Made by a program: the position numbers and the translations under genes
In this document: piece after piece, positions 1,531 to 61,363 of the stretch
Layout of the letters: each line of letters starts with the position of its first letter
How positions within the stretch are numbered: position 1 is the first letter of the stretch
Notes under the pieces: model-generated
Database searches by the model: none
Told to the model about the DNA's origin: nothing
The model's input: the letters and a program-made list of their open reading frames with translations, nothing else
From: an uncultured Candidatus Saccharibacteria bacterium
Lineage (GTDB): Bacteria > Patescibacteriota > Minisyncoccia > UBA6257 > WO2-44-18
Direction of reading: 5' to 3'
Assembly: GCA_964360605.1 (NCBI GenBank)
Contig: CAYHXN010000001.1
Location: 15,494-79,387 of the forward strand
DNA: 63,894 nt

Positions 1531-2637
1531 ATGAGACTACTAATTGCCGTTGACGCGCCCGGACCGGCGGAATTTATACGACCTGTTATTGGTTTGTTAA
1601 AAAGCAACCACCGCTACAGCGGGGCAAGCAAACGACATGAAATAAAAATAGTAACGGTTAAAGATTCGCCGACTAAAATTTTGGCGAAGTTCAGGCCGAC
1701 AAGATGCGATTCCGAAAAAGAGGCGGAAAAAATCTATAAAAAATTCCGGCCGGATGCGCTAATAATCGCTATGAGTTCTCTTGTGCTCGGACCACACGTA
1801 AATTTAAAATTTTCCGAATTGGCAAATAAGGGTAAAAAAACTGTTATTGGTTTTCAAGATTTCTGGGCTAATCATCGCTGGCCAACCAATAGAAAAATTT
1901 TATCGGTTTCCAAAGCAATTTTAGTTCCGGACGATCTAGCAGAAAATTTAATTCTGCAGGACGGATATAAAGGCAAGGTTCTCATTACCGGCAGTCCGGC
2001 CTTTGATAAGTTCCGAGAAATTTATGTTCCTAAAGAAAGAAAGCGACTAAGAAAAAAGTTGGGAATTCCGGAAGATTTTTTTGTTATTCTTCATGCCGGC
2101 ACCGGAACGCCTCAAAGCTGGAAAGAAGATGAAACGACTTTCAAATTTATCGCTAACACTATTAAAGAGCTCCAAAAAGAAGCTCATCGCATCGCTTTTA
2201 TATCCCGACCTCATCCCAGAGACGAAAATCCGGAACGATACAAAAAACTTGCTCCCGATTTAAAAATGATTGAAACAAAATCTATTCCTATCACAGAAGA
2301 ACTGGTTCCGGTCTCTGATGTCGTCATTGGAATGTATTCAACGAATCTGGTTCATGCCGCCTATCTTAGAATTCCCGCAATCAGCATTCTTTTACCAAAC
2401 GGCGGAATGCGGCGGCTTAAAAAGATTCATTTGGCAGATTTTCCTCCCAATGCCGCCGGAGCAACGGTGGGAATTTATAAGGCCTCCGTCCCCGCTCTTA
2501 AAAAAGAGTTGGAATTGATAATGATTGATCCGATACATAACGCCGTGATTAAAAAAGCCCAAGAGCGGTTTTTCCCAATCCTTAAAGAAACGGCCGCCAA
2601 AAAAGTTTTGGGGTCAATTCTTTCTTTGATTAATTAA
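1531..2637 (+). CDS. GT-B-fold-like hypothetical protein (glycosyl/phosphoglycosyl transferase-like)
   Basis: 368-aa ORF with an N-terminal Rossmann-like start (MRLLIAVDAPGP), VLITGSPAFDKF, RPHPRDE and a VVIGMYSTNLVHAAYLRIPAI segment typical of the C-terminal half of GT-B enzymes. Paralogous to the partial ORF 1..845. Confidence 0.55.
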   Translation: MRLLIAVDAPGPAEFIRPVIGLLKSNHRYSGASKRHEIKIVTVKDSPTKILAKFRPTRCDSEKEAEKIYKKFRPDALIIAMSSLVLGPHVNLKFSELANKGKKTVIGFQDFWANHRWPTNRKILSVSKAILVPDDLAENLILQDGYKGKVLITGSPAFDKFREIYVPKERKRLRKKLGIPEDFFVILHAGTGTPQSWKEDETTFKFIANTIKELQKEAHRIAFISRPHPRDENPERYKKLAPDLKMIETKSIPITEELVPVSDVVIGMYSTNLVHAAYLRIPAISILLPNGGMRRLKKIHLADFPPNAAGATVGIYKASVPALKKELELIMIDPIHNAVIKKAQERFFPILKETAAKKVLGSILSLIN

Positions 2638-5776: not shown

Positions 5777-6664
5777 TTACGAAAATAATATAGCAATAAC
5801 ACCTGAAATGGCAATCCCCGCTCCCAATAATTTTTTAGCGATACCCTTCTCATCAAAAAACAGCCAGCCCCACAAAACTCCAAACAAAATTCCGGTTCGT
5901 TTGATAGCTATTGTGTAAGAAGCAAATCCGGCAAGAAGAGCGGAATTATGAAAAATGCTGCTAAGGGCAATGATTGTTCCTAAAAGAAATAAAATCCAGA
6001 CATTACCGAATAATTTTTTTTCCGGCGGAACGACATTTCCATTCCTCACCAAAATTCTCTTGTACCGAAAAAGCAAATAAAAAAGACAACAGATAGCCAT
6101 AACTAATGAACCTATTGCCGGAGAAAAAAACACGTCCGAGTGCTGGGTAGCAATTTTGTCAAAATTTACAGTAATGGAAAAAATAAAAGCCACTAATATT
6201 CCAAGAAAGTTTCCCTTTTTAAAATCTAAAACCGCGCTTTCTTCCCGCCGTTGGGAAATAAACCATAGGCCGAAAATCGTCAGCAAAACCCCTAAAATTC
6301 CGAATAAAGACGGAGCTTCTCCTAAAAATATAAAAGAGGTGATGAGAAGGAACACCGGCGTCAAGAGAATCATTGAATAAACGGAAGAGAATTCTCCAAC
6401 CTCGTAAGCTTTTAGCATGAGGGGGAAAGAAATGAAATTTAAAACACCGGTAATAAAAATTGCCAGCCAAAAACGGCTGTCAACCGCCGGAAATCCCACG
6501 AAAAAATAAGAAACTATAAAAAGTAGCGAGGAAGCAGTGGCGGAAGCAATAAAGGTAATGGAGTACTTGGAATAACTAGTTAATTTCAAAGCAAGTTTTT
6601 GGGTTGCTTGAGTCCAAGAATTAGTAAACGCCGACCCTAACGCTAAAAGAAACCAAGTAAGCAT
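5777..6664 (-). CDS. EamA/DMT-superfamily membrane transporter
   Basis: 295 aa and about 10 hydrophobic segments, built as two EamA-like halves (…FISFPLMLKAYEVGEFSSVYSMILLTPVFLLITSFIFLGE… and …ALLAGFASYTIAIKRTGILFGVLWGWLFFDEK…). Confidence 0.75.
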   Translation of the reverse strand: MLTWFLLALGSAFTNSWTQATQKLALKLTSYSKYSITFIASATASSLLFIVSYFFVGFPAVDSRFWLAIFITGVLNFISFPLMLKAYEVGEFSSVYSMILLTPVFLLITSFIFLGEAPSLFGILGVLLTIFGLWFISQRREESAVLDFKKGNFLGILVAFIFSITVNFDKIATQHSDVFFSPAIGSLVMAICCLFYLLFRYKRILVRNGNVVPPEKKLFGNVWILFLLGTIIALSSIFHNSALLAGFASYTIAIKRTGILFGVLWGWLFFDEKGIAKKLLGAGIAISGVIAILFS

Positions 6665-6711: not shown

Positions 6712-7659
6712 TTAACGACTATTAGCAACCGCCTTTTTACGGAAAAGCGATGCCGTAAATTCCCAAGTAGTTTTGTCCATAAGAACAAAAGCTCCGAAGA
6801 AGAATAGTATACCCATAATTTTTCCAAGAGTCAGTTGTTCGCCGAAAAATATCACTCCTCCGATCATCGCGGTTATCAGATAAGAGCCGTTCATCACAAG
6901 TTTTTTTAGAGCAATAGTGGCACCGCCTTTATAACTCAATAGGTTAAAGGCCCACATACCCACAACGACAAAACCGCAAAGTGCGCCGACTATCCAAAGC
7001 TTACCTAAAGAAAAATCTGTAAGAAGATGAAGGGAGCCAAAAATCGCAAGACCGATAACCGCGCAAACCAGCGTAGTGAAACCGCCCCAGAAATTTTTTA
7101 CGAACGCGTCAACTGCTTTTACTTTCTGGGTAATCCCCTGGTTAATCGCAACGCTTATAGTAATGCCCAGCGACATCCAAACCCAAACCGGCTGGGCTAA
7201 TGCTTCGCTTAAAGACGGAAATCCCAGAACGGCATATCCGGCCAAAATCGCCACCGCTATAGCAAGCCACTGACGAGCTTTCAATGAATGCTTGAAAAAT
7301 ATCCAATCAATGAAAGCGCCGGGAATAATGGAAAGAGTAATAATAAAAGTATTCACTCCAATATCACCGTTATAAACGAAAACTAGAAAAGACAGAATAG
7401 TGGAAATAAAAGCGAACAGGCCGAATAAACAAGAACCAAGGACCTGGCTCGCACTCGGAAATAATGATTTGCGTTGAGCTTTGACTACTCCGATGCCGCA
7501 AACTACCTGCACAATAGAAACCACCGCCGTCGTAAAAAGAGCATTAGGAGCATTCGCCGCCGCAACGCCGATTACTTTTTGCATCATCTTGGAAATCGTT
7601 TTCGTTGCCGATTCCAACAAAGTCCATCGCATCCACTTCTCGCCTACTTGAAGAGCCAT
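6712..7659 (-). CDS. Polytopic membrane protein, DMT/sugar-transporter-like
   Basis: 315 aa, about 10 predicted helices and a two-half architecture ending in GGVIFFGEQLT, which resembles the EamA C-terminal motif. The family assignment is tentative. Confidence 0.55.
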   Translation of the reverse strand: MALQVGEKWMRWTLLESATKTISKMMQKVIGVAAANAPNALFTTAVVSIVQVVCGIGVVKAQRKSLFPSASQVLGSCLFGLFAFISTILSFLVFVYNGDIGVNTFIITLSIIPGAFIDWIFFKHSLKARQWLAIAVAILAGYAVLGFPSLSEALAQPVWVWMSLGITISVAINQGITQKVKAVDAFVKNFWGGFTTLVCAVIGLAIFGSLHLLTDFSLGKLWIVGALCGFVVVGMWAFNLLSYKGGATIALKKLVMNGSYLITAMIGGVIFFGEQLTLGKIMGILFFFGAFVLMDKTTWEFTASLFRKKAVANSR

Positions 7660-11156: not shown

Positions 11157-12470
11157 TTAAAGAGCCTGCTCCCCTTCTTTAGTAACAAGATGGGGATAGG
11201 GCATTGGGAAAAACAGCCGCCCACCCATTTTTAAGTACTCTTTTTCGCGCTTTATCAGCTCGTCTTTAAAAAACCAAATGAGAACGAGCATGCTTGCTGG
11301 ATTCATTGCCCGCGCCGTTTCTTCAGAAATGAGTTCAATATCCGTACCCAAGGTTCGCAAGCCAACTTTTTCCGGATTCCGCTCGCTGATGCATGGAAGC
11401 AGATCTTTGGTAATATTAAAAAATTGGATTAAGACATTTCCTTTAGTGGAAGCTCCCAAACCGATAACGCTTCGTCCAGCTTGCTTCTCTTCCAAAAGAA
11501 ATTGCAGAGTTTTATTTTTGAGCTCATCAATTTTTTTAGAAAATTCCTTATAAGGTTCCGGGCTGATCAAATTCATTGCATCTTCTGTGGCGTAAATTTT
11601 CTTCAGATTTTCTGACGGCGAACGTTCGGAATTCCGATGCGCCGCAAAAACTCTCAAACTGCCACCGTTTACATCGTTCAAGGAAGCGTCAAAAATTTCC
11701 AAATCATGCCGTTTAAGCAAATTTTCCAAAGCCCGTATTGTGTAATACTCCAAATGCTCGTGGCAAACATCATAAAAATTGAGTGTCTTTAGAGAAGTTG
11801 GTAAATAACTTAACTGAATACACCAAACACCATCAGGAGCCAAAATAGATTTTACTTCATTAACAAAAGCATTTGGGTCATCAAGATCGTAAAACATGGC
11901 CACGGAGGTGATTGCTTTAAACAAAACATTACCGGCTGTTTTTTGAACACTGGTTTTGGAAAAATAATCAGTAATTATTTTACAGTCCGCGTCTAAGGCC
12001 ACCGGAGTAATATTGGTAGCCGGATCAATACCGATTTTTTTAACACCGGCGGGAAAATAATTTAGCATTGTTCCATCATTGCAACCGATGTCTAGAATCC
12101 AATCTCCCGCATCCAACCGAACTTTGGAGTTAAGGTCATTGACTAAATCCTTTAACGCTTCCCGCATCATGGGATTGGTTTGGGAACGATAAAAATAATT
12201 TCGGTACATTAAATCCCGCTCTACTGTTTCCCTAAGCTGAACTAAACCGCAATCGCGGCAAAGCATAACTATCAAAGGAATTTTAATTTTTGCTAAATCG
12301 TTATTTTCATTACTTTTTACGAAAGCCGAAGCTAAATACTGCTCTCCAAAATTAAGAACTTCCGTCAAATTAGGATTTTTACAAATACGGCAGGCACCAA
12401 TGTTTTGATAATAATTTTTCACAGTTATCTTTTGAAAATTTCTTTCACAAGAACCATAAGTATCTCCCAT
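11157..12470 (-). CDS. SAM-dependent sugar C-methyltransferase-like enzyme (Zn-ribbon N-terminus, class I MTase, C-methyltransferase C-terminal domain)
   Basis: CRICKNPNL...CRDCGLVQL zinc-ribbon pair, then the ILDIGCNDG SAM motif and a long C-terminal domain, as in NDP-hexose C-methyltransferases. Confidence 0.7.
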   Translation of the reverse strand: MGDTYGSCERNFQKITVKNYYQNIGACRICKNPNLTEVLNFGEQYLASAFVKSNENNDLAKIKIPLIVMLCRDCGLVQLRETVERDLMYRNYFYRSQTNPMMREALKDLVNDLNSKVRLDAGDWILDIGCNDGTMLNYFPAGVKKIGIDPATNITPVALDADCKIITDYFSKTSVQKTAGNVLFKAITSVAMFYDLDDPNAFVNEVKSILAPDGVWCIQLSYLPTSLKTLNFYDVCHEHLEYYTIRALENLLKRHDLEIFDASLNDVNGGSLRVFAAHRNSERSPSENLKKIYATEDAMNLISPEPYKEFSKKIDELKNKTLQFLLEEKQAGRSVIGLGASTKGNVLIQFFNITKDLLPCISERNPEKVGLRTLGTDIELISEETARAMNPASMLVLIWFFKDELIKREKEYLKMGGRLFFPMPYPHLVTKEGEQAL

Positions 12471-13090
12471 CCGGTTTTAAACGGTTTCATCTTGCGCACT
12501 CCGCCGATTCTTTCCGGTTCGTCGGCGGGAATTTCCGCTATTTTTAATTTCTTCTTCGCGAATTGGATTGGCATTTGAATTGACCAAGATAATCCCAAAG
12601 CATTCATATTCAACCGTCGAAACGCATCTTTACGATAGCCGCGAAATCCCACTAAAACATCGGTATAAGTAGCGCCAAACAAAAAATTTACCAGTTTAGT
12701 AAACGCCCAGTTGCCCTTAGAAGTTAAAAAGTCGTCGTCATAGCTTTTGGCCCCGGCTTTATAACGTGAAGCAATTACAAAATCATATCCTTCCGCGAGC
12801 TTAGCGACCACTTCCGGTATTTTTTCTGGCAATGAATTGCCGTCAGGAGGGAACTCAATCACGAAATCTCCCGTCGCGATTTCCGACCCTTGTTTCATGC
12901 CCGTTCCATAGCCCCGACCGCGTTGAGCGTGCACTAAATAACCTTGCTCTTTGCAATATTCAATAGTGCCGTCGGTAGATCCTCCATCCACAACAATAAT
13001 TTCGTCAACCCATTCCTTTTTAATTTTAGGCAAAACCGCCTGAACAGCCGTTATTTCATTAAGAGTTGGGGCCAATAAAGTTACTTTCAT
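12425..13090 (-). CDS. Family 2 glycosyltransferase, soluble DPM1/polyprenyl-phosphate-sugar-synthase-like
   Basis: [12 protein letters not shown]...IIVVDGGSTDGT...GDFVIEFPPDGN. Start chosen at MKV (13090). There are no C-terminal TM helices. Confidence 0.75.
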   Translation of the reverse strand: MKVTLLAPTLNEITAVQAVLPKIKKEWVDEIIVVDGGSTDGTIEYCKEQGYLVHAQRGRGYGTGMKQGSEIATGDFVIEFPPDGNSLPEKIPEVVAKLAEGYDFVIASRYKAGAKSYDDDFLTSKGNWAFTKLVNFLFGATYTDVLVGFRGYRKDAFRRLNMNALGLSWSIQMPIQFAKKKLKIAEIPADEPERIGGVRKMKPFKTGWEILMVLVKEIFKR

Positions 13091-14066
13091 GTTTAATCCT
13101 TTCCAATTTATACCAATCAATAGTTTTTTGCAATCCTTTTTCTAACGAAAACACGGCCTGAAATCCAATTTTTTCTTTAGCCTTTCTAGTATCACAAGTG
13201 CGGCGTGGCTGACCGTCCGGCTTGGAAGTATCAAAAAGGATTTTTGCCTGACTGCCAGTTAATTTCAATAATAATTTTGCCAACTCACCAATAGTTATTT
13301 CTTCGCTACTGCCGATGTTTAACGGATCCGCGACGGCGTATTTCTCGCAAGTCTCCAACAGTCCCCTAGCAAAATCTTCCACAAAAAGAAAAGAGCGTGT
13401 TTGGTTTCCGCTCCCCCAAACCGTTAAGGGATTATCGCCATCAAAAACGCGTTTAATTAGTCCCGGAATCACGTGTTGAAACGGAGCAAAAAAATCATCG
13501 CGGGGGCCATAACAATTATAGGGACGGGCGATTGCCACCTTCATTCCAAATTCTTCCGCGTAAGCGTGACCAAGATACTCCGCCATGCGTTTTGACCAAC
13601 CGTATCCGGCATTAGCCGACTCTGGTTGGTCCTTAAACCCTTCCTCTTCTGGAGTCGGATGAGAAGTATCGCGCGGATAAACACAAGCAGAACTAACCAC
13701 TAAAAATCTTTCTACCTTAGCGTCTTTAGCAGAATCAATAACTGTTAAAAACATTCGCATGTTATCACGAAACAAACTAGCGTGATGTTGCATGCTATGC
13801 GCGATACCGCCCCCTTTAGCAGCGGCTAAATTTAGAACAATTTCCTGACCGCGCATTAGACGGTCAACCGAAGGCCGATCAGCTAAATCAGCTTCCACTA
13901 AATTAATCTGTTTGCGAACCGATTCTAAAAATCCTGCCGATGAACCGGGAAAAACCGGTACCGTTACCTTAGCGCCTTGTCCTACTAATATTTCTACTAA
14001 ATGGCTACCAACAAAACCGGCGCCGCCGGTCACCAATATTTTTTTGCCGCTATAAAACAAGGCCAT
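13059..14066 (-). CDS. Extended-SDR NAD-dependent epimerase/reductase, GDP-fucose-synthase-like
   Basis: [26 protein letters not shown] (YxxxK) and [22 protein letters not shown]. It overlaps gmd by 17 nt. Confidence 0.8.
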
Positions 14067-15036
14067 GTTCTTTGAAATCGTGTTCCAACATGATCTTTAT
14101 TAAACTTTTAAACTTTACTTTCGGTTCCCAGCCCAACTTGTTTTTCGCCTTAGAATAATCGCCGCGCAATTCCGGCGTTTCTGATGGCCGGTGATAACGT
14201 GGATCAATTTCCACGCATTGCTTCCAATCCATTCCGGCCAACTTAAAAGATTCTTCCACAAATTCTCTAACGGTATGGGATTCTCCGGTTGCCACAACAT
14301 AGTCATCCGGTTCCGGCTGTTGGAGCATCAACCACATCGCTTCCACATATTCCGGCGCGTAACCCCAATCCCGAATGGCATCTAAGTTTCCCAAATACAA
14401 TTTTTTATCTAACCCAGCCTTTATCCGGGCAACACCGTTAGTAATCTTTTTGGAAACGAAGCTTTCTCCGCGCCGCGGGGACTCATGATTAAACAAAATC
14501 CCGTTCACGATAAACAGGCCGTAGGCCTCCCGATAATTTTTAGCAATCCAATAAGAAAATGCCTTAGCGCAAGCGTAAGGACTACGCGGGTGAAAAGGCG
14601 TATTTTCATTCTGCGGACTTTGTTTTGCCAAACCAAACATTTCCGAAGAAGAAGCTTGATAAAATTTGGTTTTAAGACCACTTTCACGAATTGCCTCCAA
14701 TAAACGCAAAGTTCCCAACGCCGTAATGTCGGTGGTGTATTCCGGAATGTCAAAACTCACCCGTACATGACTTTGAGCGCCAAGATTATAAATTTCATCC
14801 GGCTGGATTTTTTGCAATAAACGGGCCAAAGAACTCCCGTCGGCCAAATCTCCGTAATGCAAATGTAAACGGCTATCCGAATCATGGAGCCGATGCGGAA
14901 TATGACTAATACGCTTGGTATTAAAAGAACTGGAGCGGCGCATTATACCGTGAACTTCATAACCCTTAGAAATAAGGAATTCCGCTAAATAGGAACCATC
15001 TTGTCCGGTAACTCCCGTAACAAAAGCTTTTTTCAT
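14050..15036 (-). CDS. gmd: GDP-mannose 4,6-dehydratase
   Basis: [43 protein letters not shown]..., [22 protein letters not shown] and [15 protein letters not shown] are highly characteristic. Confidence 0.92.
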
Positions 15037-15079: not shown

Positions 15080-16978
15080 TTAACGACGGATCGCGTAAAT
15101 TTTAACAAGGGAATTCTTATAGATCAACGAGAGCCCCGAGTCATTTTCTAAGGAACGAATGGCTAACTGCTCCTCCATAGGTCCTACAAAAACATAATCT
15201 GCTGGCACCGCTTGCCAATTAACTTTCAAATCTTGATAACGCCTAATCAATTCTTCAATTTTTTCCCCGCGCTTCTTGGTAATAATCTCACGATCCGCTC
15301 CAGACAAAAACTGGTGGAAAGAACCATAGCGGCTAGGGAAATAATTTCCGTAAAGATTGCCGAAACTGTCGTTTAAATTACTCCCCTTGTCTGGAAAACA
15401 TTCATAACTTTCACAACCGGCATCTAATTGGCCGGCCAACCGTTTACGCAAAGTTTCTCCCGAAACCCCAAAAAGTTTGTGGCTAGTCAGATACCGGTCT
15501 TCCATTTCTTGCATACTCATTAAGGTGGTAAACGCTGTCGGCAGATACGGCCGCGCGGCTGTGTGACTGGTTAAATAAAACGAGGTCATAGTTGAAGGAG
15601 AAATAATTTTTGGCTCGCCGGGAATGTTTTCTTTAATCCAATCCCACGATTCGGCAACTTCACCGGGGAAACGATAATAATCAACCAAATGCGACTGAAG
15701 GCAGCAGTTTATATAAACAATGTTCACTATTTTTTTAGTAATCAGCATCGCGCTTAAAACTAAAAAGATTCCAACAATAATTTTTTCCGCCGACCGCCAG
15801 CGTGCTTCTATCCGCTTTATAATTTCAAAAATCACAGCGAAGGAAACTATAAAAATTGCTGGCGCAATCGGTCGGCGGAAAAAATGAGGCACCGGAGAAA
15901 AACCGGCTACCAGCTGAACGTTCCAGACTAAAAACATGGCTGAGATTAAAGCCAAAAGGAAAATGGCCATGTTTTTATCTCGCCGCCAAAACGTCGCCCA
16001 AACGACTACCGCTAACCCGATGTAAAAAGCATAATCAGCTAAATTACCGACATCTATTCCCACTACCCGCCCGAAGGCCACGCCAGCTCGGTAAGTAAAA
16101 TCAGAAGAGGTCGGCAAAGCGCTGAATTGCAAATATCCGACTACGTAAGGCAGAATCGCGATCGCGAACGCAATCAAAAACCAGATAAAATACCTCAAGC
16201 GATTTGGGTCATACTTGCGGAAAATTAACGAATAAACAAAAAGTGTCCCCCAAGCAATAGTCCAATAAACCCAGTGATGAAAATAGGTGTAAAAAATTAG
16301 TCCAGAAAAAATTCCCGCCCAAACTGCTTTTACCCGGCTCGGTGAACGCCAAAATAAAAAGAATAATGCGATAGCGGCAAGATAAATCGGATAAGTCAAA
16401 AGAGGTTCGTCAACTCGGGCAAGATAAAGCTGGTCAAATTGGGTGCGAACAAACGGAAAAAAGTTATTCAAAAAAAACGCCTGAAACTCCGCTAAGCCCT
16501 GCCACTTATAAAAAGGAAGTTTTAAGACAATCGGCGTTAGCGTCCCCGTCAATCCGAGGAACAAAGCTTTGGCGCGAGAAGCGGTAAAAAGCCAGCCCAG
16601 CCAGTAAAAAAGCGCGAAGATTGCCCCAACAAAGAAAAACTGCGCGCCCAGATAAGCCGAATCAGTATTTCCACCAAACAAAACTAGAAAGGGAGCGAAT
16701 AAAGCCGGCGGCAAAGGATTTTGAACAGTGGGCAATTGATGATCGCCGTAAAGTTCCGATGGCGGAAAATGCCCTTCGTAAACTTCCCGAGCCCTACCCA
16801 AATATGCCTGCAAAGAATCACGATAAGTTTTATATTGCGCTAAAACAAAACGCTGGCCGTTTTCTTCAAAATTCCTTTTCACCGCTAGAGGCGGACCAAT
16901 ATAAACAAAACCGACTGACACGGCAGCCACGATTACTAAAATTAAATGGGGTTTAATGGCCTGAAAACTAAATCTCAT
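15080..16978 (-). CDS. Large polytopic membrane protein, paralog family A (GT-C-like glycosyltransferase candidate)
   Basis: 632 aa with more than 10 hydrophobic segments and a C-terminal soluble domain. A conserved first loop (REVYEGHFPPSELYGD) and the motifs FFPFVRT, ARVDEPL, FYTYFHHWVYW and VWNVQLVAGFSP are shared with 38680..40542 and 61364..63275. Confidence 0.55.
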   Translation of the reverse strand: MRFSFQAIKPHLILVIVAAVSVGFVYIGPPLAVKRNFEENGQRFVLAQYKTYRDSLQAYLGRAREVYEGHFPPSELYGDHQLPTVQNPLPPALFAPFLVLFGGNTDSAYLGAQFFFVGAIFALFYWLGWLFTASRAKALFLGLTGTLTPIVLKLPFYKWQGLAEFQAFFLNNFFPFVRTQFDQLYLARVDEPLLTYPIYLAAIALFFLFWRSPSRVKAVWAGIFSGLIFYTYFHHWVYWTIAWGTLFVYSLIFRKYDPNRLRYFIWFLIAFAIAILPYVVGYLQFSALPTSSDFTYRAGVAFGRVVGIDVGNLADYAFYIGLAVVVWATFWRRDKNMAIFLLALISAMFLVWNVQLVAGFSPVPHFFRRPIAPAIFIVSFAVIFEIIKRIEARWRSAEKIIVGIFLVLSAMLITKKIVNIVYINCCLQSHLVDYYRFPGEVAESWDWIKENIPGEPKIISPSTMTSFYLTSHTAARPYLPTAFTTLMSMQEMEDRYLTSHKLFGVSGETLRKRLAGQLDAGCESYECFPDKGSNLNDSFGNLYGNYFPSRYGSFHQFLSGADREIITKKRGEKIEELIRRYQDLKVNWQAVPADYVFVGPMEEQLAIRSLENDSGLSLIYKNSLVKIYAIRR

Positions 16979-16999: not shown

Positions 17000-18061
17000 C
17001 TAATAAGCACGGTCCTGATCGCCTCCTCCTTTAGTAGTATACCAGTTGTACAAATCCCAAGTCCTAGAATTGTCTAAACTTTTGCCGATTTTCACGGCAA
17101 AGTTTAAATAACGGCGTTTGGCGCTAACTGGATTAAAAAGCAGCGGAACCTCGTTGTAGCCGACCCGCTCTCCATCAATAAAACCGGCGGCGCTCAAAGA
17201 ATCGCGGTGGAACGGGCCACTGGAAAAATAATCAATAAAATCCAAACCGGAAGCGCGGCAAAAATCAACTACTCCGCCGATGGCAAACAGCTCGGCTTCT
17301 TCGTCAGAAATGAAATCAATAAGTCTGCCGACTTTAATTCCCAGTGGCCCGCTTTCCGTCTTCGGCTCTTCAATCCGTAAAATTGCCAGTGCTTTAATTT
17401 CTTCTCCGCTTTTTACAGCCAACATCCGGTATTTAATCAAAGGATTGCGAGCATAACGCCAATTTAGATAAACCGCGTTGCGTTCAATGGCGATTGGATA
17501 ACGATTCTGAATCTTATGCCAGAAAATATCCGTTTCTTTGCTAAATTCGGTTACTTCATCAAAGTGCCAATTTTTTTCGGTATTAATTTTGTGCGATGAA
17601 GCGGGTAGATCATAAAGCGCGTTTTTAGGATTAATGACATATAAATAGCGTTTTAGATTCTCTCCTTTCCAGCCGGCTTTCATAAAAATCGGCCAGGCCG
17701 TTTCATTAATAGTGTGATCTAAGGCAAGATCGGCAAGCGCCGCCGCTTTTTCCATCAATAAATATCCGTAGCCCAAACTTCTCAAGGATTTTTTAACGAT
17801 TAAATTACAGAGCGAAACACCAGAAACTGTTTGGCCGAAAAAGTTAAATGGGGACGCGAATAAACCAAAAGTACCAACCAGCGTTTCGCTGGAATCAAAT
17901 AAACCAAGCGATTCGTAGGATTCTTTGTTCAAATTAAATGGCCCGTCAAACTGCCAATCATAATAAATTTTGTTGGTTAAAATGTGGCCGGGCTTGTATT
18001 CCGCTTCATTAAAAGCGCGCAGTTTTTCCCATTCAGATTTTTTTATTGGCCTTATTTCCAT
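17000..18061 (-). CDS. Two-domain GNAT/Fem-like acyl(aminoacyl)transferase candidate
   Basis: 353 aa and soluble. The N-terminal half has a GNAT-like beta-strand and helix (CNLIVKKSLRSLGYGYLLMEKAA). The second half looks like a repeat of the fold. Assignment is by resemblance only. Confidence 0.45.
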   Translation of the reverse strand: MEIRPIKKSEWEKLRAFNEAEYKPGHILTNKIYYDWQFDGPFNLNKESYESLGLFDSSETLVGTFGLFASPFNFFGQTVSGVSLCNLIVKKSLRSLGYGYLLMEKAAALADLALDHTINETAWPIFMKAGWKGENLKRYLYVINPKNALYDLPASSHKINTEKNWHFDEVTEFSKETDIFWHKIQNRYPIAIERNAVYLNWRYARNPLIKYRMLAVKSGEEIKALAILRIEEPKTESGPLGIKVGRLIDFISDEEAELFAIGGVVDFCRASGLDFIDYFSSGPFHRDSLSAAGFIDGERVGYNEVPLLFNPVSAKRRYLNFAVKIGKSLDNSRTWDLYNWYTTKGGGDQDRAY

Positions 18062-18328: not shown

Positions 18329-19855
18329 TCACTTGTTAATTGTCACTTGTATTTCTTCTCTTAATTTAACTCTATCAATTTTTCCTGTGCTGGTCTTTGG
18401 TAATTCCCGCCGATGAATTTCATCGGGTATCAAATACTGCGGCACTAATTTCGCCAAATCTTTTTTAATTTCCTCAACGCTTTTAGTTTCTTTTAAATTT
18501 ACGAAGGCGTTCAATTTATTGCCCCCGCTTTCTAAATCGAAAACCGCAATAGCCGCCGATTCATTGACGTAGGGCAAAGAATTCAACGCGGCTTCCACGT
18601 CCCCCAACTCAACACGATTACCTCGTATTTTTACCTGATTGTCTTTCCGGCCAATAAATTCATAATTCCCGTCTTCGCGGAGCCGTACTAAATCGCCGGT
18701 TTTATAAATAATCCCGCCATCCGACTTAAACGGATGCTTTATAAAAGAAATCGCCGTCCGTTCCGGATCGTTCCAATACCCCTTGCCGACTCCTAGCCCG
18801 TCAACATAAAGCTCTCCCACCTCACTCGGTTTGGCTAAAAAACCGCTATCGGTTACCGCGAAAATTTCCATTCCGCCGGTCGCTTTGCCAATTGGAACAA
18901 ATTTAGAAAAATCAGTCGGCGGTTCTTTTATTATATAAAAAGAGCACTGAACGGTTGTTTCGGTGGGTCCGTATAAGTTCACAAAGGTCTTTTCCGAAAA
19001 TGCCGTCATCCATTCAGCTAAGAATTTTGACGGAAATCCTTCTCCGTTAAATAAAACTTTGGTTAAGTTTTGCATCCGCCCAGGTTTTACCAGCCCCGCA
19101 ATAGCCAGATGAACCATTACCGACGGAACAGAATTCCAAATAGTCAGCCGATTTTCTTCAATAAATTTAATCAGCTGGCCCGGAAATAAAGAATATTCCT
19201 CCGGCACTAGAAACAAGGTCGCACCGGCTTTCCAGGCGCAATATAAATCAAAAGTAGAAAGATCGAAATGTAGCGGCGGATGCTGAGACATTTTGTCCAT
19301 ATGAGTAATACCCAGTTCACTCACTGCCCAATCGGTGGCGTTGATAATATTTGCATGAGTAATCATTACGCCCTTAGGTTTTCCGGTGGATCCGGAGGTG
19401 TAAAGAATGTAAGCCAAATCGGAACTTTCGTTTTTATAAGCCAAAGGCGCTGTCGGCTGATCACTTACGAAATCTTTTTCACTGTCCAAATTGAAAATAC
19501 CGGCAAAGGTTTCCACTAAAGGCAGGCTAGCGTTATCACAAATAACTAACCTTGGAGCAACATCGTTAACAATCTGTTGAAGTCGCGCCACCGGTGCTTT
19601 GGCGTTAAGCGGAACGTAAACTGCGTCAGCTTTGAGAGTGCCGAGAATAGCGTTAACGGCCTTTAAGGATTTGCTTAAACAAAAACCGACTCGATCACCG
19701 CGTTTCACTCCACGAGCTTTTAACGCTCGCGCCAACTGGTTACTTGTGCTATCTAATTCGGTATAAGTAATTTTCACACCCTTAAAAATTACCGCTGGGT
19801 GGTCAGGATATTTTTGCGATGATTCTTCAAAATATTGTTGAATTAGTTTAATCAT
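18329..19855 (-). CDS. Stand-alone adenylation enzyme (ANL superfamily), DltA-like carrier-protein ligase
   Basis: 508 aa with LAYILYTSGSTGKPKGVMITH, YGPTETT, YKTGDLVR and GRKDNQVKIRGNRVELGDVE. The size and lack of other domains match DltA-type enzymes. Confidence 0.85.
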   Translation of the reverse strand: MIKLIQQYFEESSQKYPDHPAVIFKGVKITYTELDSTSNQLARALKARGVKRGDRVGFCLSKSLKAVNAILGTLKADAVYVPLNAKAPVARLQQIVNDVAPRLVICDNASLPLVETFAGIFNLDSEKDFVSDQPTAPLAYKNESSDLAYILYTSGSTGKPKGVMITHANIINATDWAVSELGITHMDKMSQHPPLHFDLSTFDLYCAWKAGATLFLVPEEYSLFPGQLIKFIEENRLTIWNSVPSVMVHLAIAGLVKPGRMQNLTKVLFNGEGFPSKFLAEWMTAFSEKTFVNLYGPTETTVQCSFYIIKEPPTDFSKFVPIGKATGGMEIFAVTDSGFLAKPSEVGELYVDGLGVGKGYWNDPERTAISFIKHPFKSDGGIIYKTGDLVRLREDGNYEFIGRKDNQVKIRGNRVELGDVEAALNSLPYVNESAAIAVFDLESGGNKLNAFVNLKETKSVEEIKKDLAKLVPQYLIPDEIHRRELPKTSTGKIDRVKLREEIQVTINK

Positions 19856-19860
19856 GGCCG

Positions 19861-20265
19861 TTAGGAATTAGTCATTAAAGCAACTGCGGTAGCGTAATCT
19901 TTCGTATGAGAAATGGAAATAAGTACCTGAATCTTGCCGCCTGTGGCGAGCCTCGCCTTCTGAAAAATTATTGAATCGGTGGCGGGAAAACTTGAAACTT
20001 GAAGCTTAACCCTTGGACTTCCATCTTTTTTATTTAAAATTTCAATATTTTTCGCTTTATAAATCGTGCTCCCCAACGATTTAATCACTGCTTCTTTAGC
20101 GGCAAATTTACCGGCAAAATGCTGGTGGGGATTAGATTTAGAAAGACAATATTTTATTTCTTGGTCGGTAAAAATCTTTGTATAAAAACTCTGATTTTTC
20201 ACGTAAGGTATTTTCCGAAACTTTTTTACCTCTACTATATCTATACCTACATTTTTTATTTTCAT
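19861..20265 (-). CDS. acpS: Holo-[acyl-carrier-protein] synthase (4'-phosphopantetheinyl transferase)
   Basis: 134 aa with GIDIVEVKKF...FTDQEIKYC...HFAGKFAAKEAVIKSLG...ISISHTKDYATAVA. Confidence 0.85.
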   Translation of the reverse strand: MKIKNVGIDIVEVKKFRKIPYVKNQSFYTKIFTDQEIKYCLSKSNPHQHFAGKFAAKEAVIKSLGSTIYKAKNIEILNKKDGSPRVKLQVSSFPATDSIIFQKARLATGGKIQVLISISHTKDYATAVALMTNS

Positions 20266-21614
20266 AATTGGTTCAAAATGAACTGGGTAATTCGCTCACC
20301 CGCCTTACCATCTAATTGGCAACACTGCTCCTCCACCAAACGCCTTCGTCCCTCTCGATCTAAAGATGGGTTTTCTAAATACTGATTTATTTGATTTATA
20401 AGCTCCTGCCTGTTTCTAGGATAGGCAATACCGCCGGTAAGCACCGCTTTAGCGTAGTGAGTCATTTTATAAAAATAAGTTGGGGATTTAGAGGCAAGCT
20501 CCTTTTCCCTTACCTCAAAATTAATATTGATAACTGGTTTATCAAAAACCGCCGCGTCAATACTCATACTGGAAGCGTAGCAAATAAAAACGTCCGTGTT
20601 GGCCAACGTATCCGTAAGACCGCGAATATCCTCAAAGCTCATATCCCAATCTACTCCCCGCTTGGAAGAAAAACGGATTCCCGGCAAGTCGTACTTAAGA
20701 CGCGGGCGCTTAATCAATTCATCTTTATCGGTAAAATCGTTCGGTTGGAAACGAACAAGTAGCTGGGCGTTTCTAATCTCACCGCTTTCTGTCGCGGAAC
20801 TCAACAGGTCAATAATATCCCAATCAGAGTTACTAAACGCTTTTCCCATTGGAGCGTAAACAATAAGTTTTTTATTCAAATCTAAGCCTTTTTTGGAAAG
20901 AAATACGTCGCGCGACACTGGCTTGTAATTAATATGCCAATCGTATTGTGGAATACCAGTAACGCAAATATCTTCCCGAGCCATATCCGCGTGACAGATT
21001 GCCTCCTCTTCCACTAAATGGTTAAAAACTATTAACTTATCCGGAAGTAATCTCAAGCTGTTGCGGGCTGTTAATTTATCCCAAGAATTAATAAAACCGA
21101 TGGTTGGAACGTCTCTATGCATCGCTTCCCGCAATAGATGCGCTTCTAAATCATCAAATAGGTGAGCTAAGAAAACTACCGATGGTTTATATTTTTCAAA
21201 ATACCCAGAAAAAGTTCGGTCTTTAACCAAAAAATAATCTAGCGCTCTCGCTACTTTCCGGAAAAAACGGCGGGCCAGCAATCTATTCAGTGCCCAATTA
21301 ATCCAATAGCGCGGGTAGCTTATGCCTGTTTCTAATGCCATTTTACGCCGCAAGTCCACAGTTTCCGTCCGCAATAAGAAGAATTTCAAACCAGAAAAAA
21401 ACTTATCCCACCCCCGAAGAACCGGAGCCGAAACCGATTCGTAAATTACATTGGGATTAGAAAATTCTTTTTGATAGTAGGCGGCCCGCTCTAGCGTTCC
21501 CACAAAAAAAACTATTCGCACCGCCGGTTGTTTTACAAGATTTTTATAAATATCGGTACGCAAAATATTCTTCGCTTCCACGCCCTGAAAGATAGTAATG
21601 AATATTGTTTTCAT
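20262..21614 (-). CDS. TagB/TagF-like GT-B protein (CDP-glycerol glycerophosphotransferase-like), paralog 1 of 4
   Basis: 450 aa with LIVYAPMGK, TDVFICYASSMSIDAAVFDKPVININ and a C-terminal NPSLDREGRRRLVEEQCCQLDGKAGERI tail that resembles the Glyphos_transf family. Clear paralog of 42405..43772, 43776..45131 and 57061..58395. Confidence 0.5.
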   Translation of the reverse strand: MKTIFITIFQGVEAKNILRTDIYKNLVKQPAVRIVFFVGTLERAAYYQKEFSNPNVIYESVSAPVLRGWDKFFSGLKFFLLRTETVDLRRKMALETGISYPRYWINWALNRLLARRFFRKVARALDYFLVKDRTFSGYFEKYKPSVVFLAHLFDDLEAHLLREAMHRDVPTIGFINSWDKLTARNSLRLLPDKLIVFNHLVEEEAICHADMAREDICVTGIPQYDWHINYKPVSRDVFLSKKGLDLNKKLIVYAPMGKAFSNSDWDIIDLLSSATESGEIRNAQLLVRFQPNDFTDKDELIKRPRLKYDLPGIRFSSKRGVDWDMSFEDIRGLTDTLANTDVFICYASSMSIDAAVFDKPVININFEVREKELASKSPTYFYKMTHYAKAVLTGGIAYPRNRQELINQINQYLENPSLDREGRRRLVEEQCCQLDGKAGERITQFILNQL

Positions 21615-29805: not shown

Positions 29806-29829
29806 TAAAAAGCCCGCCTAGGAGGCGGG
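29806..29829 (-). terminator. Intrinsic terminator overlapping the radical SAM gene stop
   Basis: Minus-strand RNA reads CCCGCCU-CCU-AGGCGGG followed by CUUUUUAUU. Confidence 0.7.
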
Positions 29830-31392
29830 TTCTGATTTATCTTCTTTCGGATCTTTCTTTAATGCGCCGGTACTCCATCTGTTGCCAATGTTACGCTGAA
29901 GTCTCTTTTCAACATAATTTCGAGGATTAACCGTTTCCCACAAATATTGTTTAAGCTCTAATAAGCGTTCGGGCGAAACAACTGTATTTTTCATCACTGG
30001 TTTGAACCAGTTCATAAAGTCCGGATCAAAGTCGGGAGTTAAATGCCCGTTAGCAATGGCGTAATCGTAAAGCTGGCTTCCAGGAAAAGGAATGGGACAA
30101 AAAAATGAACAGTGTTTTGCTCCCGCATCTACCATTCGTTTTCCATAAGCAGCACTATTTCGCATTTCCTCTTCGGTTTCGTCGGGAAAACCAATCATCA
30201 TATTCACCGAACACGTAATACCGACGTCAACGGCAATTCTAGCCATTTCAATAAGATCCATTGTCTCCAAATGAAGTTTGGATGTAGCATATTTATCCAG
30301 AATCCGCTGGCTGGCGGATTCTACTGGGAAAACAATATGGTCAAAGCCGCTGGCTTTTAAAATTTCCATATAATCACGGTCAGTTTCTAATTTGCCCGTT
30401 TTTTTATTGCGCACCAGGAAATGAACCAAGTTAACCCCGTTAACATCAACAATATGTAAATCCTCACCGCGCAGTTTTGTGAAAATCTGTTTAACACGAG
30501 ATTTCTTGGCCAGCAAACTATCATCTTCAAAATAGACTTTTACAACATTCAACTTTTTAAGAATCTTAATTTCTTCTAATACTCTCTCTACAGATTTGAG
30601 TCGGAGGTTCCCAATATCCTCAAGAAATTCGCGTTCTTTAGAAATATGGCAATAACTGCATTTAAATGGGCAACCGCGAGAGGTCATGATCGGAGCATAA
30701 ACGTATCTTCGATTAGTAAAACTATCGTCAAAATTACCGTGAGGTGAATTGATGGCAGCATATTTGTCCAGAGGTAATTTATGCCAAGCCGGAATCGGCA
30801 ACTCGTCCAAATTCATTTTTGTATCTCCCGGCGCGAGCGGAGTCTTAACAATCTTTCCATCTTTTACAAACATTATTCCACTCACCGTTTCCCATGGCGC
30901 TTTCTTTTCCCAAGCACGAACAATTTTCACAATTATTTCCTCGCCTTCGCTGTAACAAATTACATCAAGGCACCCGCTTGCAAAAAAACGGTCCGATAAA
31001 TTGCGGGCATTTACGCCGCCACTGATAACTAAAATATCTGGACTTACTTCTTTAGCCGCTTTCGCCACCTCCAAAGCCATTTTAGTTTGGGGAGTAAAAT
31101 TGGAATGAATCCCTACAACGTTATAGCCTCCCTTGGCGATTAGCTCTTTCATTTCTTCGTAATTCATTCCGATTCGAATCAGTCCGTTTTCCTGCTGAAC
31201 AACGCGATAAAAAGTTTGTTCCAAGGTTTGTTCTTTCGTTCCTACCGAGGCATCAACAACATCATTCTCAATTCCCGCTTTATCTAAAGCTGCAGCAAGA
31301 TACAATGGACCAAGCGATCCGTCCGGTCTCGGCATTTCCTGCGGATTCAACTGATTTGGTGGATAAATTAACAAAACTTTCGGTTGAGTCAT
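29818..31392 (-). CDS. Cobalamin-binding-domain radical SAM enzyme (class B, methyltransferase-like)
   Basis: An N-terminal B12-binding-like Rossmann region (VLLIYPP...VVGIHSNFTPQ...ILVISGGVNA) is followed by TSRGCPFKCSYCH (CxxxCxxC). 524 aa, with the AGGAGAAGA SD upstream. Confidence 0.85.
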   Translation of the reverse strand: MTQPKVLLIYPPNQLNPQEMPRPDGSLGPLYLAAALDKAGIENDVVDASVGTKEQTLEQTFYRVVQQENGLIRIGMNYEEMKELIAKGGYNVVGIHSNFTPQTKMALEVAKAAKEVSPDILVISGGVNARNLSDRFFASGCLDVICYSEGEEIIVKIVRAWEKKAPWETVSGIMFVKDGKIVKTPLAPGDTKMNLDELPIPAWHKLPLDKYAAINSPHGNFDDSFTNRRYVYAPIMTSRGCPFKCSYCHISKEREFLEDIGNLRLKSVERVLEEIKILKKLNVVKVYFEDDSLLAKKSRVKQIFTKLRGEDLHIVDVNGVNLVHFLVRNKKTGKLETDRDYMEILKASGFDHIVFPVESASQRILDKYATSKLHLETMDLIEMARIAVDVGITCSVNMMIGFPDETEEEMRNSAAYGKRMVDAGAKHCSFFCPIPFPGSQLYDYAIANGHLTPDFDPDFMNWFKPVMKNTVVSPERLLELKQYLWETVNPRNYVEKRLQRNIGNRWSTGALKKDPKEDKSEPAS

Positions 31393-37852: not shown

Positions 37853-38671
37853 TTACTTTTTCCTTGCGATAAAAGAAAAGCCGGCGGTGATTGTTTCCGC
37901 GGCCGGGTGATGAATTAAAAGATAGTCAATAATTTTAAACGGAGAAGTTAAAATAACCATTGTCATCCAAATAAGATCCTTTAAAAACTTATTACCGAAA
38001 GAAAAAGCCAGAGCTACCCATTCCTGAAAAACGGACAATAAAGCGCACGTCGGACCAACGTCCGGCTTCATTTCCAACATTTCAAAATCTTTAAAGAGTG
38101 CCCTTAAGCCATCGGCAGTCCAACGGTAATAATCTTTCGGGGAGGGGTGGTAAGGAGTAATAAAATTAGTGGAAAGGTACAAAACACCGCCGGGCTTTAA
38201 AACCCGGTGAATTTCCTTGGCAACCTGAACGGGATCTTTCATATGTTCCAATACCCAAGCAAAAATAACGCCGTCCACGGAATTGTCCGCAAATGGCAGA
38301 TCGTGAGCGTCGGCCAGCACGTCTACCATCTCCCACGGATAAATATCCACATTCACAATTTCCGGATGAAGGCGACGATTGCCGGAGCCGATTTCCAAAA
38401 CCAAAGCCCCCCGAGGAACATATTTAAAAAGATCTTTAGGCTGTTTTCCTAAAAAAATTGCAGGGGCGACAAAATAAAAGATGAATGAGTACAGCCAGGG
38501 AATTTTTTTAAGAGCGGTTTTGAGTGTATTGATAAATCCTGTGTGAAGATCGCCACGTATTTCTTTATAACCGGCATCTGCAATAAAAAGAGGCTTGCCG
38601 GCAATCAAACGCTCTGGCGGCTTTTTAAAACGAACCGCCGGAGGCAAGGTTTTTTTAAAATCTTGGTTCAT
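37853..38671 (-). CDS. Class I SAM-dependent methyltransferase flanked by hydrophobic segments, paralog 1
   Basis: LEIGSGNRRL...DAHDLPFADNSVDGVIFAWVLEHMKDP...LKPGGVLYL, with an N-terminal LYSFIFYFVAPAIFLG and a C-terminal hydrophobic tail. By eye about half its residues are identical to 54746..55549. Confidence 0.75.
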   Translation of the reverse strand: MNQDFKKTLPPAVRFKKPPERLIAGKPLFIADAGYKEIRGDLHTGFINTLKTALKKIPWLYSFIFYFVAPAIFLGKQPKDLFKYVPRGALVLEIGSGNRRLHPEIVNVDIYPWEMVDVLADAHDLPFADNSVDGVIFAWVLEHMKDPVQVAKEIHRVLKPGGVLYLSTNFITPYHPSPKDYYRWTADGLRALFKDFEMLEMKPDVGPTCALLSVFQEWVALAFSFGNKFLKDLIWMTMVILTSPFKIIDYLLIHHPAAETITAGFSFIARKK

Positions 38672-40542: not shown

Positions 40543-41459
40543 CTCTCAATAATTTCTCTGATAGTATAAGGACGCTCTTCTTTTGATTCGTAATAAATTC
40601 TCCATAATATTTCTGTCAAAATCCCAATTATAAAAAGGAATAGGCCGCCAACGGTAAACATAGCTACAACAATCAGCAAAGATGTTCCGGCACTAATTGG
40701 TAGACCGAAACCTATTGAAGCTAGAAGCCCGACTACTGCCAACGCGGCTATTCCCCAAAATAAAAATCCTAGAGCGCTAAAAAAAACCATAGGGCGCATA
40801 TTCGGATGCAAAAAACGAACTACAAAAAGATCCGCTATCGCTTTGACGCCAGACATCCAAAGATGCGTAGACACACCGGATTTTCTTTCATGATGAGTAA
40901 CCTCTACTTCCGCTACTTTGGCGCCACGATAGAAAACAGAAACTGCCAAAAAAACATGCTGTATGCCATACATGTTTATACCATCTAAGAATTTTTTCTT
41001 ATAGGCCTTTAGAGCGCAGGCGTGATCGTGAAGATTCAATCCGCTGACCGTACGTGTTAACCAATTAGCAAGACGGGAGTGAATTCTCCGGGCAAGATTA
41101 TCGTGACGATCCTTTCTCCATCCAGCCACTACATCGTAACCCTCATCCATTTTCGCTAAAAGCTTCGGAATGTCTCTGGGGTCATTTTGCAAATCTCCAT
41201 CCATAATAATCACAATGTCTCCCTTGGCGGTTTTAATACCCGCATCCAAAGTTAAAGTCTGTCCAAATTTCCTTGTCAAAGTAATAATTTTAATCGGCGA
41301 AAGAGTTTTTAGAATTGCCGGGGTTTCGTCGATTGAACCGCTATCCACAACAATAATTTCATAAGGCACGCCCAACTTCTCTAACGTTTCTTTATTTAAA
41401 CGGTGAAGCTCTCTAATGTTGCCAGCTTCATTGTAAACCGGAATAATAACGGAAATCAT
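40539..41459 (-). CDS. Polyprenyl-phosphate glycosyltransferase (GT2 with two C-terminal TM helices; GtrB/CsbB/ArnC/DPM1-like)
   Basis: ISVIIPVYNEAGNI, IIVVDSGSIDET, IIMDGDLQNDP and C-terminal helices (MVFFSALGFLFWGIAALAVVGLL... and LLIVVAMFTVGGLFLFIIGIL). Confidence 0.88.
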   Translation of the reverse strand: MISVIIPVYNEAGNIRELHRLNKETLEKLGVPYEIIVVDSGSIDETPAILKTLSPIKIITLTRKFGQTLTLDAGIKTAKGDIVIIMDGDLQNDPRDIPKLLAKMDEGYDVVAGWRKDRHDNLARRIHSRLANWLTRTVSGLNLHDHACALKAYKKKFLDGINMYGIQHVFLAVSVFYRGAKVAEVEVTHHERKSGVSTHLWMSGVKAIADLFVVRFLHPNMRPMVFFSALGFLFWGIAALAVVGLLASIGFGLPISAGTSLLIVVAMFTVGGLFLFIIGILTEILWRIYYESKEERPYTIREIIER

Positions 41460-45131: not shown

Positions 45132-45174
45132 CACTGGAAAATTATGCCATATCGCGTTAATATAATCAAATAAA

Positions 45175-54738: not shown

Positions 54739-54745
54739 ATTTTTC

Positions 54746-59210: not shown

Positions 59211-59213
59211 AAT

Positions 59214-61264: not shown

Positions 61265-61342
61265 ATTCCAGTGATTAAAATTTAACACACCAAAACGACT
61301 TTTTCTACTGAAAATTAATGACCGGAAAACAATTTAAAATGA

Positions 61343-61351: not shown

Positions 61352-61363
61352 TTGAAAATTAAC

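Follow-up and report, generated by a model that had tools for sequence, protein, structure and literature searches.

A 63,894-nucleotide stretch of DNA from an uncultured Candidatus Saccharibacteria bacterium (GenBank assembly GCA_964360605.1, contig CAYHXN010000001.1, positions 15,494 to 79,387), which we refer to as a whole as the window, encodes three related polytopic membrane proteins, here called paralogs A, B and C. We conclude that these proteins are probably extracytoplasmic glycosyltransferases with the GT-C fold (glycosyltransferase fold C; class GT-C_A), each serving as the last enzyme of a transmembrane glycosylation system of the GtrA/GtrB/GtrC type. The family they define is new and has no name, whereas its fold and the logic of its system are known. 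The genes are as follows, with strands given as (+) or (-).

Paralog A: 15080..16978 (-), 632 aa; 11 predicted transmembrane (TM) helices and a C-terminal extracytoplasmic domain of ~205 aa; GT-C fold predicted by AlphaFold2 and Foldseek.
Paralog B: 38680..40542 (-), 620 aa; same family as A (profile E-value 3e-235); ATGA overlap with the GT2 gene upstream.
Paralog C, N-terminal piece: 61352..61816 (+), 154 aa; TM1, the acidic first loop, TM2 and TM3; an open reading frame (ORF) of its own.
Paralog C, C-terminal piece: 61806..63275 (+), 489 aa; the remaining TM helices and the C-terminal domain; +1 frame.

Pairwise BLASTP over the full length gave 38% identity between A and B (E 7e-136), 36% between A and C (E 2e-139) and 34% between B and C (E 8e-121). 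These similarities are far above chance, and A, B and C are true full-length paralogs, as an initial annotation of the window had claimed for the ORFs 15080..16978 and 38680..40542 and a split third gene. A profile built from homologs of A found exactly three copies, A, B and C, among all ORFs of the window. The two ORFs of paralog C span profile positions 3-153 and 157-627, and hence nothing is lost at their junction; the N-terminal piece begins with a TTG at 61352, while the earlier annotation used an ATG at 61364. All of the shared motifs quoted in that annotation are present, although C deviates by one residue in two of them (FLPFVNT for FFPFV.T and IWNIQ for VWN.Q).

The family had been described as unrecognised and as not obviously PMT, ArnT, STT3 or YfhO, and both statements hold. 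No Pfam-A or NCBIfam profile matched A, B or C above cutoff, and sub-threshold matches (DUF5985, Acyl_transf_3, a holin family and vanZ) were discarded as noise. The Pfam profiles for STT3 and YfhO (PF09586) matched neither A, B and C nor any of 26 family members, and no Dpy19 or PMT match rose above cutoff. PMT_2 (PF13231, GT39/GT83) gave matches below the gathering score in two of the 26 members (best E 5e-4), and P0177 gave E 0.009, where P0xxx denotes a family representative cluster and L001-L028 denote related genomic loci. PDB chain sequence searches with A and with profiles A1 and A2 yielded nothing meaningful. In the databases, members are named 'hypothetical protein' or carry the name of a fused domain only.

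An exhaustive profile search collected 1,285 clusters (50% identity) at E<=1e-3, 288 of them at E<=1e-30, while searching again for homologs through a word index, this time with the broad alignment A2, brought in almost no further members. All named members come from Patescibacteria (Parcubacteria, Harrisonbacteria, Yanofskybacteria, Uhrbacteria, Kaiserbacteria, Lloydbacteria and Minisyncoccia). So do all 23 loci found by scanning GTDB genomes with profile A1, some of which bear the generic label 'uncultured Candidatus Saccharibacteria', itself a Patescibacteria lineage. The family is likely restricted to Patescibacteria, the genome scan having sampled close relatives only. Three old orthogroups correspond to A, B and C, and in Parcubacteria Gr01-1014_3 each of them is represented by one gene (L007, L019 and L026), with neighbours as in the window. 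Two other Patescibacteria genomes carry tandem head-to-tail pairs of one A-like and one B-like gene (L012, 4074..7860; L020, 5938..9710). A 67-aa remnant that matches only the C-terminal end of the family lies upstream of a GT-B gene in L005 (5970..6173), and likewise in L015. Our literature searches turned up no publication that deals with GT-C enzymes or with glycosylation of the envelope in Patescibacteria.

The fold was assessed with an AlphaFold2 model of A based on 26 sequences (pLDDT 86.5, pTM 0.89). When this model was compared with the PDB using Foldseek, all 23 matches at E<=1e-3 were GT-C enzymes, and so were ranks 24-28. E-values were 2e-7 for STT3, 8e-7 for DPY19, 6e-6 for PglB, 1e-5 for AftA and 2e-4 for ArnT; AglB, AftD, ALG3, Pmt4 and EmbC were also among the top 28, and AftA had the highest TM-score (0.48). 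The first match outside the GT-C enzymes had a probability of 0.07 and a TM-score of ~0.1. Thus the GT-C-like nature proposed initially is what the structure search returned, and transporter, Wzy and ligase folds were absent from the PDB matches.

GT-C_A enzymes are defined by TM1, two juxtamembrane helices (JM1 and JM2) in the first outside loop, and then TM2-7; at the tip of JM1 they have a conserved Asp that is essential for catalysis (PMC12041299). In the model of A, DSSP assigns two short helices, 49-58 and 60-67, to the first loop, between TM1 and the next TM helices, which would fit JM1 and JM2. Judged from the model, then, A, B and C apparently have a GT-C fold of class GT-C_A. They resemble the solved members of this class (STT3/PglB/AglB of GT66, DPY19 of GT98, AftA/AftB/AftD/Emb, ArnT of GT83 and PMT of GT39) in their predicted fold, in a predicted layout where TM1 leads into a long outside loop that carries conserved acids and two short helices, and in having a C-terminal outside domain; the combination of 11 TM helices and a cap domain is shared with AftB. 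Unlike the solved enzymes, they lack WWDYG and fall outside the PMT_2, STT3 and Dpy19 profiles, identity in the structural alignments is 9-13%, and TM-scores do not exceed 0.48. Their C-terminal domain also sets them apart. The isolated ~205 residues gave a confident AlphaFold2 fold (pLDDT 88.3) with no significant neighbour in Foldseek, the best match being the C-terminal domain of PglB (E 0.15, TM-score 0.26), and this domain is new.

Charge distribution supports an 11-TM topology with the N terminus inside and the C terminus outside. With the helices taken from the model and over 26 aligned sequences, K+R density is 0.26-0.47 in five short inside loops, compared to 0-0.11 in the outside loops. 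In homologs, TM1 is directly preceded by a fused domain, which is either a cytoplasmic one (GT2, S-adenosylmethionine (SAM)-methyltransferase or GT4) or GtrA with its 4 TM helices. The positive-inside pattern and these N-terminal fusions agree in predicting that the acidic first loop lies outside the cytoplasm, the orientation that had been assumed for it. The same prediction holds for the C-terminal domain, for the loop containing FFPFVRT/RVDEP, for the turn with FYTYFH and for the segment with VWNVQ.

Conserved acidic and basic residues are found in the outside loops. Among 58 sequences, extending down to ~20% identity, position 54, which lies within helix 49-58, is Asp in 48 and is followed by E/D in 41. 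Further conserved acids of the first loop are E65, D/E68 and D/E75, with an acid at position 75 in 55/58. R297 is conserved at 97%, N353 and Q355 at 95%, and G359 and W447 at 100%; Y230, Y232 and D293 are conserved too, as are T473, E491, R495, Y595 and E602, which together with W447 belong to the C-terminal domain. By analogy with GT-C_A enzymes, we propose D54 or its acidic neighbours as candidate catalytic or donor-binding residues, and R297 as a candidate phosphate ligand.

Gene neighbourhood speaks to the donor. The following features surround A and B or bear on donor supply and flipping.

GT2 partner of B: 40539..41459 (-); polyprenyl-phosphate sugar synthase type, with two C-terminal TM helices.
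Candidate GT2 partner of A: 12425..13120 (-); DPMS/AglJ-like (DPMS, dolichyl-phosphate mannose synthase), two genes downstream of A on the same strand.
GDP-mannose 4,6-dehydratase (Gmd): 14050..15036 (-); Pfam GDP_Man_Dehyd, 1.7e-142; between A and the GT2 gene.
Fcl-like epimerase/reductase: 13059..14066 (-); NCBIfam GDP-L-fucose synthase, 9e-56, below cutoff.
Sugar C-methyltransferase: 11157..12470 (-); Pfam Methyltransf_14, _13 and _23; downstream of the GT2 gene of the A block, and the same neighbour in L004.
Membrane-anchored SAM methyltransferase: 37853..38671 (-), by Pfam; directly downstream of B.
EamA/DMT transporters: 47779..48726 (-), 5777..6664 and 6712..7659; Pfam EamA.

The GT2 gene 40539..41459 overlaps the start of B in the stop/start sequence ATGA. 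Its product has full-length PDB matches, C-terminal TM helices included, to ArnC (1e-43), the GtrB protein sll0501 (1e-25) and an archaeal DPMS (5e-19), and its best NCBIfam matches are ArnC (1.5e-47), PgfS and AglJ, all below equivalog cutoffs. For 12425..13120, the PDB matches are DPMS (1e-11) and ArnC (2e-7), and the NCBIfam matches AglJ (7e-35) and dolichyl-phosphate hexose transferase (2e-24); orthologs (E 1e-112 to 1e-118) lie downstream of A-type genes in L004, L007 and L009. The initial annotation had noted GT2 genes of the polyprenyl-phosphate-sugar synthase type near A and B, and these are the genes in question. Gmd and the Fcl-like reductase probably supply a GDP-6-deoxyhexose, and the order A, Gmd, reductase, GT2 recurs in L004. 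Orthologs of the methyltransferase 37853..38671 adjoin B-type genes in L019 and L024. The 353-aa ORF directly upstream of A, 17000..18061 (-), has no Pfam family and only a marginal GNAT match (E 0.003).

The same partners recur across the family. A GT2 gene lies within 6 kb in 19 of the 26 distinct related loci, and 11 of the best 150 family representatives have N-terminal extensions of ~140 to 380 residues before the family domain. Seven extensions were scanned in Pfam, giving three GT2, two methyltransferase, one GtrA and one GT4 domain. GT2 fusions comprise P0025, P0028, P0030, P0039, P0051 and P0112, the GT2 domain of P0025 matching DPMS (8e-16) and ArnC (3e-15) best; P0182 is named 'Glycosyltransferase 2-like domain-containing' by UniRef. 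Methyltransferase-family domains are fused in P0111 and P0140, and GtrA in P0132 and in the N-terminal pieces of L001 and L027. Such 'Rosetta-stone' fusions, together with operon coupling, tie the family to the three-component scheme (PMC8035078, PMC11127046). Gene context and fusions thus form a strong link to lipid-phosphate sugars as the putative donors, and the earlier proposal of lipid-donor-dependent transferases gains support from the GT2 coupling and fusions, the GtrA fusions and the GT-C fold alike.

Known three-component systems include GtrA/GtrB/GtrC of Shigella and Salmonella and CsbB/GtcA/YfhO and CsdA-F/CflA of Firmicutes, and several GT-A/GT-C pairs can occur in one genome (PMC8035078; PMC11127046). 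As in these systems, a GT2 of the polyprenyl-phosphate-sugar synthase type adjoins or is fused to a polytopic GT-C protein whose outside loop is acidic, relatives show GtrA joined through fusion, and there are several GT2/GT-C pairs per genome. Unlike them, the A/B/C family has no detectable sequence relation to YfhO or to Pfam GT-C families, one paralog is split in two genes, the window contains no GtrA gene that we could find, and the host belongs to the Patescibacteria. The ArnC/ArnT pathway offers a second parallel, with the GT2 adjoining B closest to ArnC over its full length; however, the monoderm Patescibacteria cell has no lipid A, and ArnT is only the 19th structural match. DPMS enzymes with a GtrA-like TM domain provide a further precedent for GtrA-type domains fused to pathway enzymes.

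Paralogy, synteny, fusions, the type of the GT2 enzymes, the conserved split, fold and topology are directly observed or predicted. From them we infer a scheme that extends to the class of donor, the catalytic residues, the acceptor and the transfer of single sugars. In the cytoplasm, a GT2 of the ArnC/GtrB/DPMS type would charge polyprenyl phosphate with a sugar taken from a nucleotide sugar; the enzyme for B would be the translationally coupled 40539..41459, and for A probably 12425..13120, fed with GDP-6-deoxyhexose by Gmd and the reductase. The lipid-phosphate sugar would then be flipped, by GtrA in some relatives. In the window, the three EamA proteins are the only candidates for this flippase, and EamA genes are also found near homologs in L006, L008 and L017. 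At the outer leaflet, the GT-C enzyme would bind the donor through its acidic loop (a 'DE' pair of the D54/E55 type, E65, D/E68 and D/E75) and R297, N353 and Q355, and would pass the sugar on to an acceptor, which the C-terminal outside domain of ~205 aa would hold. Paralog C would act as two polypeptides. Given that A, B and C are old orthogroups, they most likely differ from one another in donor, acceptor or linkage.

Several observations weigh against this scheme. Sequence links to characterised GT-C families are absent or sub-threshold (PMT_2 in 2/26 members, best E 5e-4). Foldseek TM-scores are 0.34-0.48 with root-mean-square deviations of 9-16 A, though modest TM-scores are expected between GT-C families, and a short hydrophobic helix (89-100) leaves the exact TM count uncertain. 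C-type genes usually have no adjacent GT2, and no GtrA homolog was found in the window by phmmer or by Pfam scans of most ORFs. Finally, the top structural matches are protein-modifying enzymes.

The nature of the acceptor has to be considered in light of the surroundings, since the whole window forms a single large island of surface-glycan genes. Present here are two NeuB genes, a gene for a NeuC-like epimerase, two for CMP-sugar synthetases, several for sugar-modifying enzymes, a separate YfhO-like GT-C gene, and five paralogous GT-B genes:

GT-B gene: 1531..2637 (+).
GT-B gene: 20262..21614 (-).
GT-B gene: 42405..43772 (-).
GT-B gene: 43776..45236 (-).
GT-B gene: 57061..58395 (-).

These five match Pfam Glyphos_transf weakly and NCBIfam BFO_1060 and TIGR04396 better, and one matches polysialyltransferase. 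BFO_1060 has been linked to transfer of pseudaminic or legionaminic acid onto a protein O-glycan (PMC5420450). Because of the BFO_1060 and TIGR04396 matches and the nearby NeuB, NeuC-like and CMP-synthetase genes, the five are probably nonulosonic-acid transferases rather than teichoic-acid polymerases. TagF-like polymerases, and with them a teichoic-acid-like acceptor, were also considered and dropped in view of the NCBIfam matches, the literature and the lack of a TagF match in the PDB sequence search.

The acceptor of A, B and C would be a surface glycan or a glycoprotein of this nonulosonic-acid-rich envelope island. The weight is divided among three possibilities: a protein acceptor, chain building, and decoration of glycan side chains, which takes what the first two leave and so the largest share.

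Were protein the acceptor, the enzymes would modify pilins, S-layer or other surface proteins, either with polyprenyl-phosphate-monosaccharide donors, as DPY19 and PMT do, or in the manner of the oligosaccharyltransferases (OSTs) STT3 and PglB. This differs from the scheme above only in the acceptor or, in the OST-like case, in a pyrophosphate-linked oligosaccharide donor. The eleven best Foldseek matches are STT3, DPY19 and PglB, a ranking that slightly favours protein-modifying GT-Cs, but E-values vary little among GT-C classes and the best TM-score (0.48) belongs to AftA, which builds glycan. The best, insignificant, match of the C-terminal domain is to that of PglB (E 0.15). OSTs carry the motif WWDYG in their C-terminal domain; the family instead has an invariant Trp, W447 (58/58), in S-W-x-W (SWDWI in A) ~20 residues past the last TM helix, presumably near the position of WWDYG in OSTs. 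The motif itself is missing, as is any Pfam STT3, PMT or Dpy19 match above cutoff. The GT2 adjoining B also resembles PgfS and AglJ, and the nearby Glyphos_transf-like genes resemble the BFO_1060 family, implicated in protein O-glycan synthesis in Tannerella forsythia. As for OST-like donors, fusion and coupling to monophosphate-sugar synthases and GtrA argue against en-bloc transfer of a pyrophosphate-linked oligosaccharide. Taken together, a protein acceptor seems unlikely, although it deserves serious weight.

Less probable still, and by a good measure, is that A, B and C are processive or stepwise chain-building synthases, which like the mycobacterial arabinosyltransferases Aft/Emb would assemble a polymer outside the membrane from polyprenyl-phosphate sugars instead of decorating an acceptor made beforehand. 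AftA and AftD are among the significant structural matches, AftA with the best TM-score, and an 11-TM core with an outside cap domain is also the architecture of AftB (PMC12041299). Three paralogs per genome, and the tandem pairs of L012 and L020, are reminiscent of Aft/Emb sets. Against this, 1:1 pairing with GT2 genes and fusion to GtrA are the signature of side-chain decoration (PMC8035078), and the C-terminal domain has no match resembling a carbohydrate-binding module.

Paralog C differs from A and B in its division into two genes, and this form is conserved. The same break point (profile 153/156) is seen in the window and in L001, L025, L026, L027 and L028, at 38-54% protein identity. 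The +1 offset is common to all six loci, and each has an ATG that precedes the upstream stop by 11-14 nt; in the window, the ATG of the C-terminal piece lies 11 nt before the stop of the N-terminal piece. No Shine-Dalgarno-like sequence precedes this ATG, and therefore termination-reinitiation coupling is the likely mechanism by which the C-terminal piece is made. Programmed +1 frameshifting at the junction was considered unlikely, given the conservation of the ATG and the lack of slippery or Shine-Dalgarno-like surroundings.

A rival reading takes C for a pseudogene in decay or for a frameshift of the assembly, which would leave only A and B functional. The overlapping frames of C join in a run of G (catggggcc), where sequencing errors typically arise, and accidental breaks do occur, as in the A-type homolog of L023 (1345..3271), which is broken elsewhere, at profile ~300, probably by an accidental frameshift. 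However, recurrence of the break point, offset and ATG in five other loci at such divergence indicates that C is not random damage. The residue encoded over the conserved ATG varies (H, Y or N) while the ATG is retained, and both pieces are intact in every split locus. In two lineages (L001 and L027) the N-terminal piece is fused to a GtrA domain, and stand-alone C-terminal pieces form database clusters of their own (P0031, P0033, P0055 and P0070; P0031-P0033 are 486-489 aa). We consider paralog C to be a conserved two-gene form and a pseudogene very improbable. To our knowledge, no split GT-C has been described. It is tempting to go further and view the C orthogroup as a natural two-subunit GT-C, in which a separate catalytic-loop module is coupled through the stop/start overlap and sometimes fused to GtrA, and which together with A and B forms an ancient, Patescibacteria-specific triad that builds or decorates envelope glycans; we offer this tentatively, at slightly below even chances. 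If it is true, the GtrA fusion would mean that the lipid-sugar, once flipped, is passed straight to the active site.

That the family consists of transporters, Wzy-type polymerases or ligases, or structural membrane proteins with a superficial likeness to GT-C is the least probable alternative of all, for although there is no sequence homology to any characterised enzyme and weak stray Acyl_transf_3 matches occur in 3/26 members, no non-GT-C structure exceeded a probability of 0.2 or a TM-score of 0.13, acidic and basic residues are conserved in the outside loops, and fusion to GT2 and GtrA is recurrent.

Other features of the island were noted along the way. The YfhO-like gene, 52405..54762 (-), encodes a fourth, unrelated GT-C candidate of 785 aa whose last 55 residues match Pfam YfhO (6e-11); its family shows no profile-profile homology to A/B/C (hhalign probability 1%). 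It is preceded, with a 17-nt overlap, by the gene for a membrane-anchored methyltransferase, 54746..55549 (-), that is 59% identical to the one downstream of B, and hence pairing of methyltransferase and GT-C recurs across two GT-C families. Next to paralog C, 58395..61288 (-) encodes a formyltransferase (ArnA-like, 3e-12, and also similar to dTDP-4-amino-4,6-dideoxyglucose formyltransferase), FolD and SHMT in a row, which hints at an N-formylated amino sugar for whose synthesis formyl-tetrahydrofolate would be supplied locally. This trio recalls the ArnA-type formylation that precedes ArnC; the formylated sugar is speculative, and so is its link to C.

Between a GT-B gene and the gene upstream of A, 18329..20265 (-) encodes an AMP-binding (adenylating) enzyme and a 4'-phosphopantetheinyl transferase. 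These two may serve carrier-protein-dependent acylation or aminoacylation of a surface glycan. A B12-binding radical SAM enzyme is encoded at 29818..31392 (-), with similar genes near family members in L005 and L006, and 49401..51341 (+) encodes a 646-aa protein in which only a Pol-beta-type nucleotidyltransferase domain is found.

The overall interpretation given to these proteins at the outset, as GT-C-like, lipid-donor-dependent enzymes, is supported, with neither fold nor topology contradicting it. Two further results were not part of that interpretation, namely that the split of C is a conserved two-gene form and that the family is apparently confined to Patescibacteria. The system is not of a new kind, and its logic is that of known three-component glycosylation. 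What is noteworthy is the apparent restriction to Patescibacteria, the ancient three-paralog set, the new C-terminal domain and the conserved two-gene split, sometimes with a flippase fused. The Patescibacteria (Candidate Phyla Radiation) are a huge, almost uncultured group of ultrasmall bacteria. Next to nothing is known of their surface chemistry, although it mediates their attachment to host cells. For a family of ~1,300 clusters labelled 'hypothetical' or by a fused domain, sequence and structure prediction now suggest a fold, a topology, a donor class and partner enzymes, and supply candidate catalytic residues for mutation. The conserved split divides the core module of the GT-C fold, in some cases with one part joined to the flippase, and may thereby provide a handle on how GT-C enzymes receive their lipid-linked donors.

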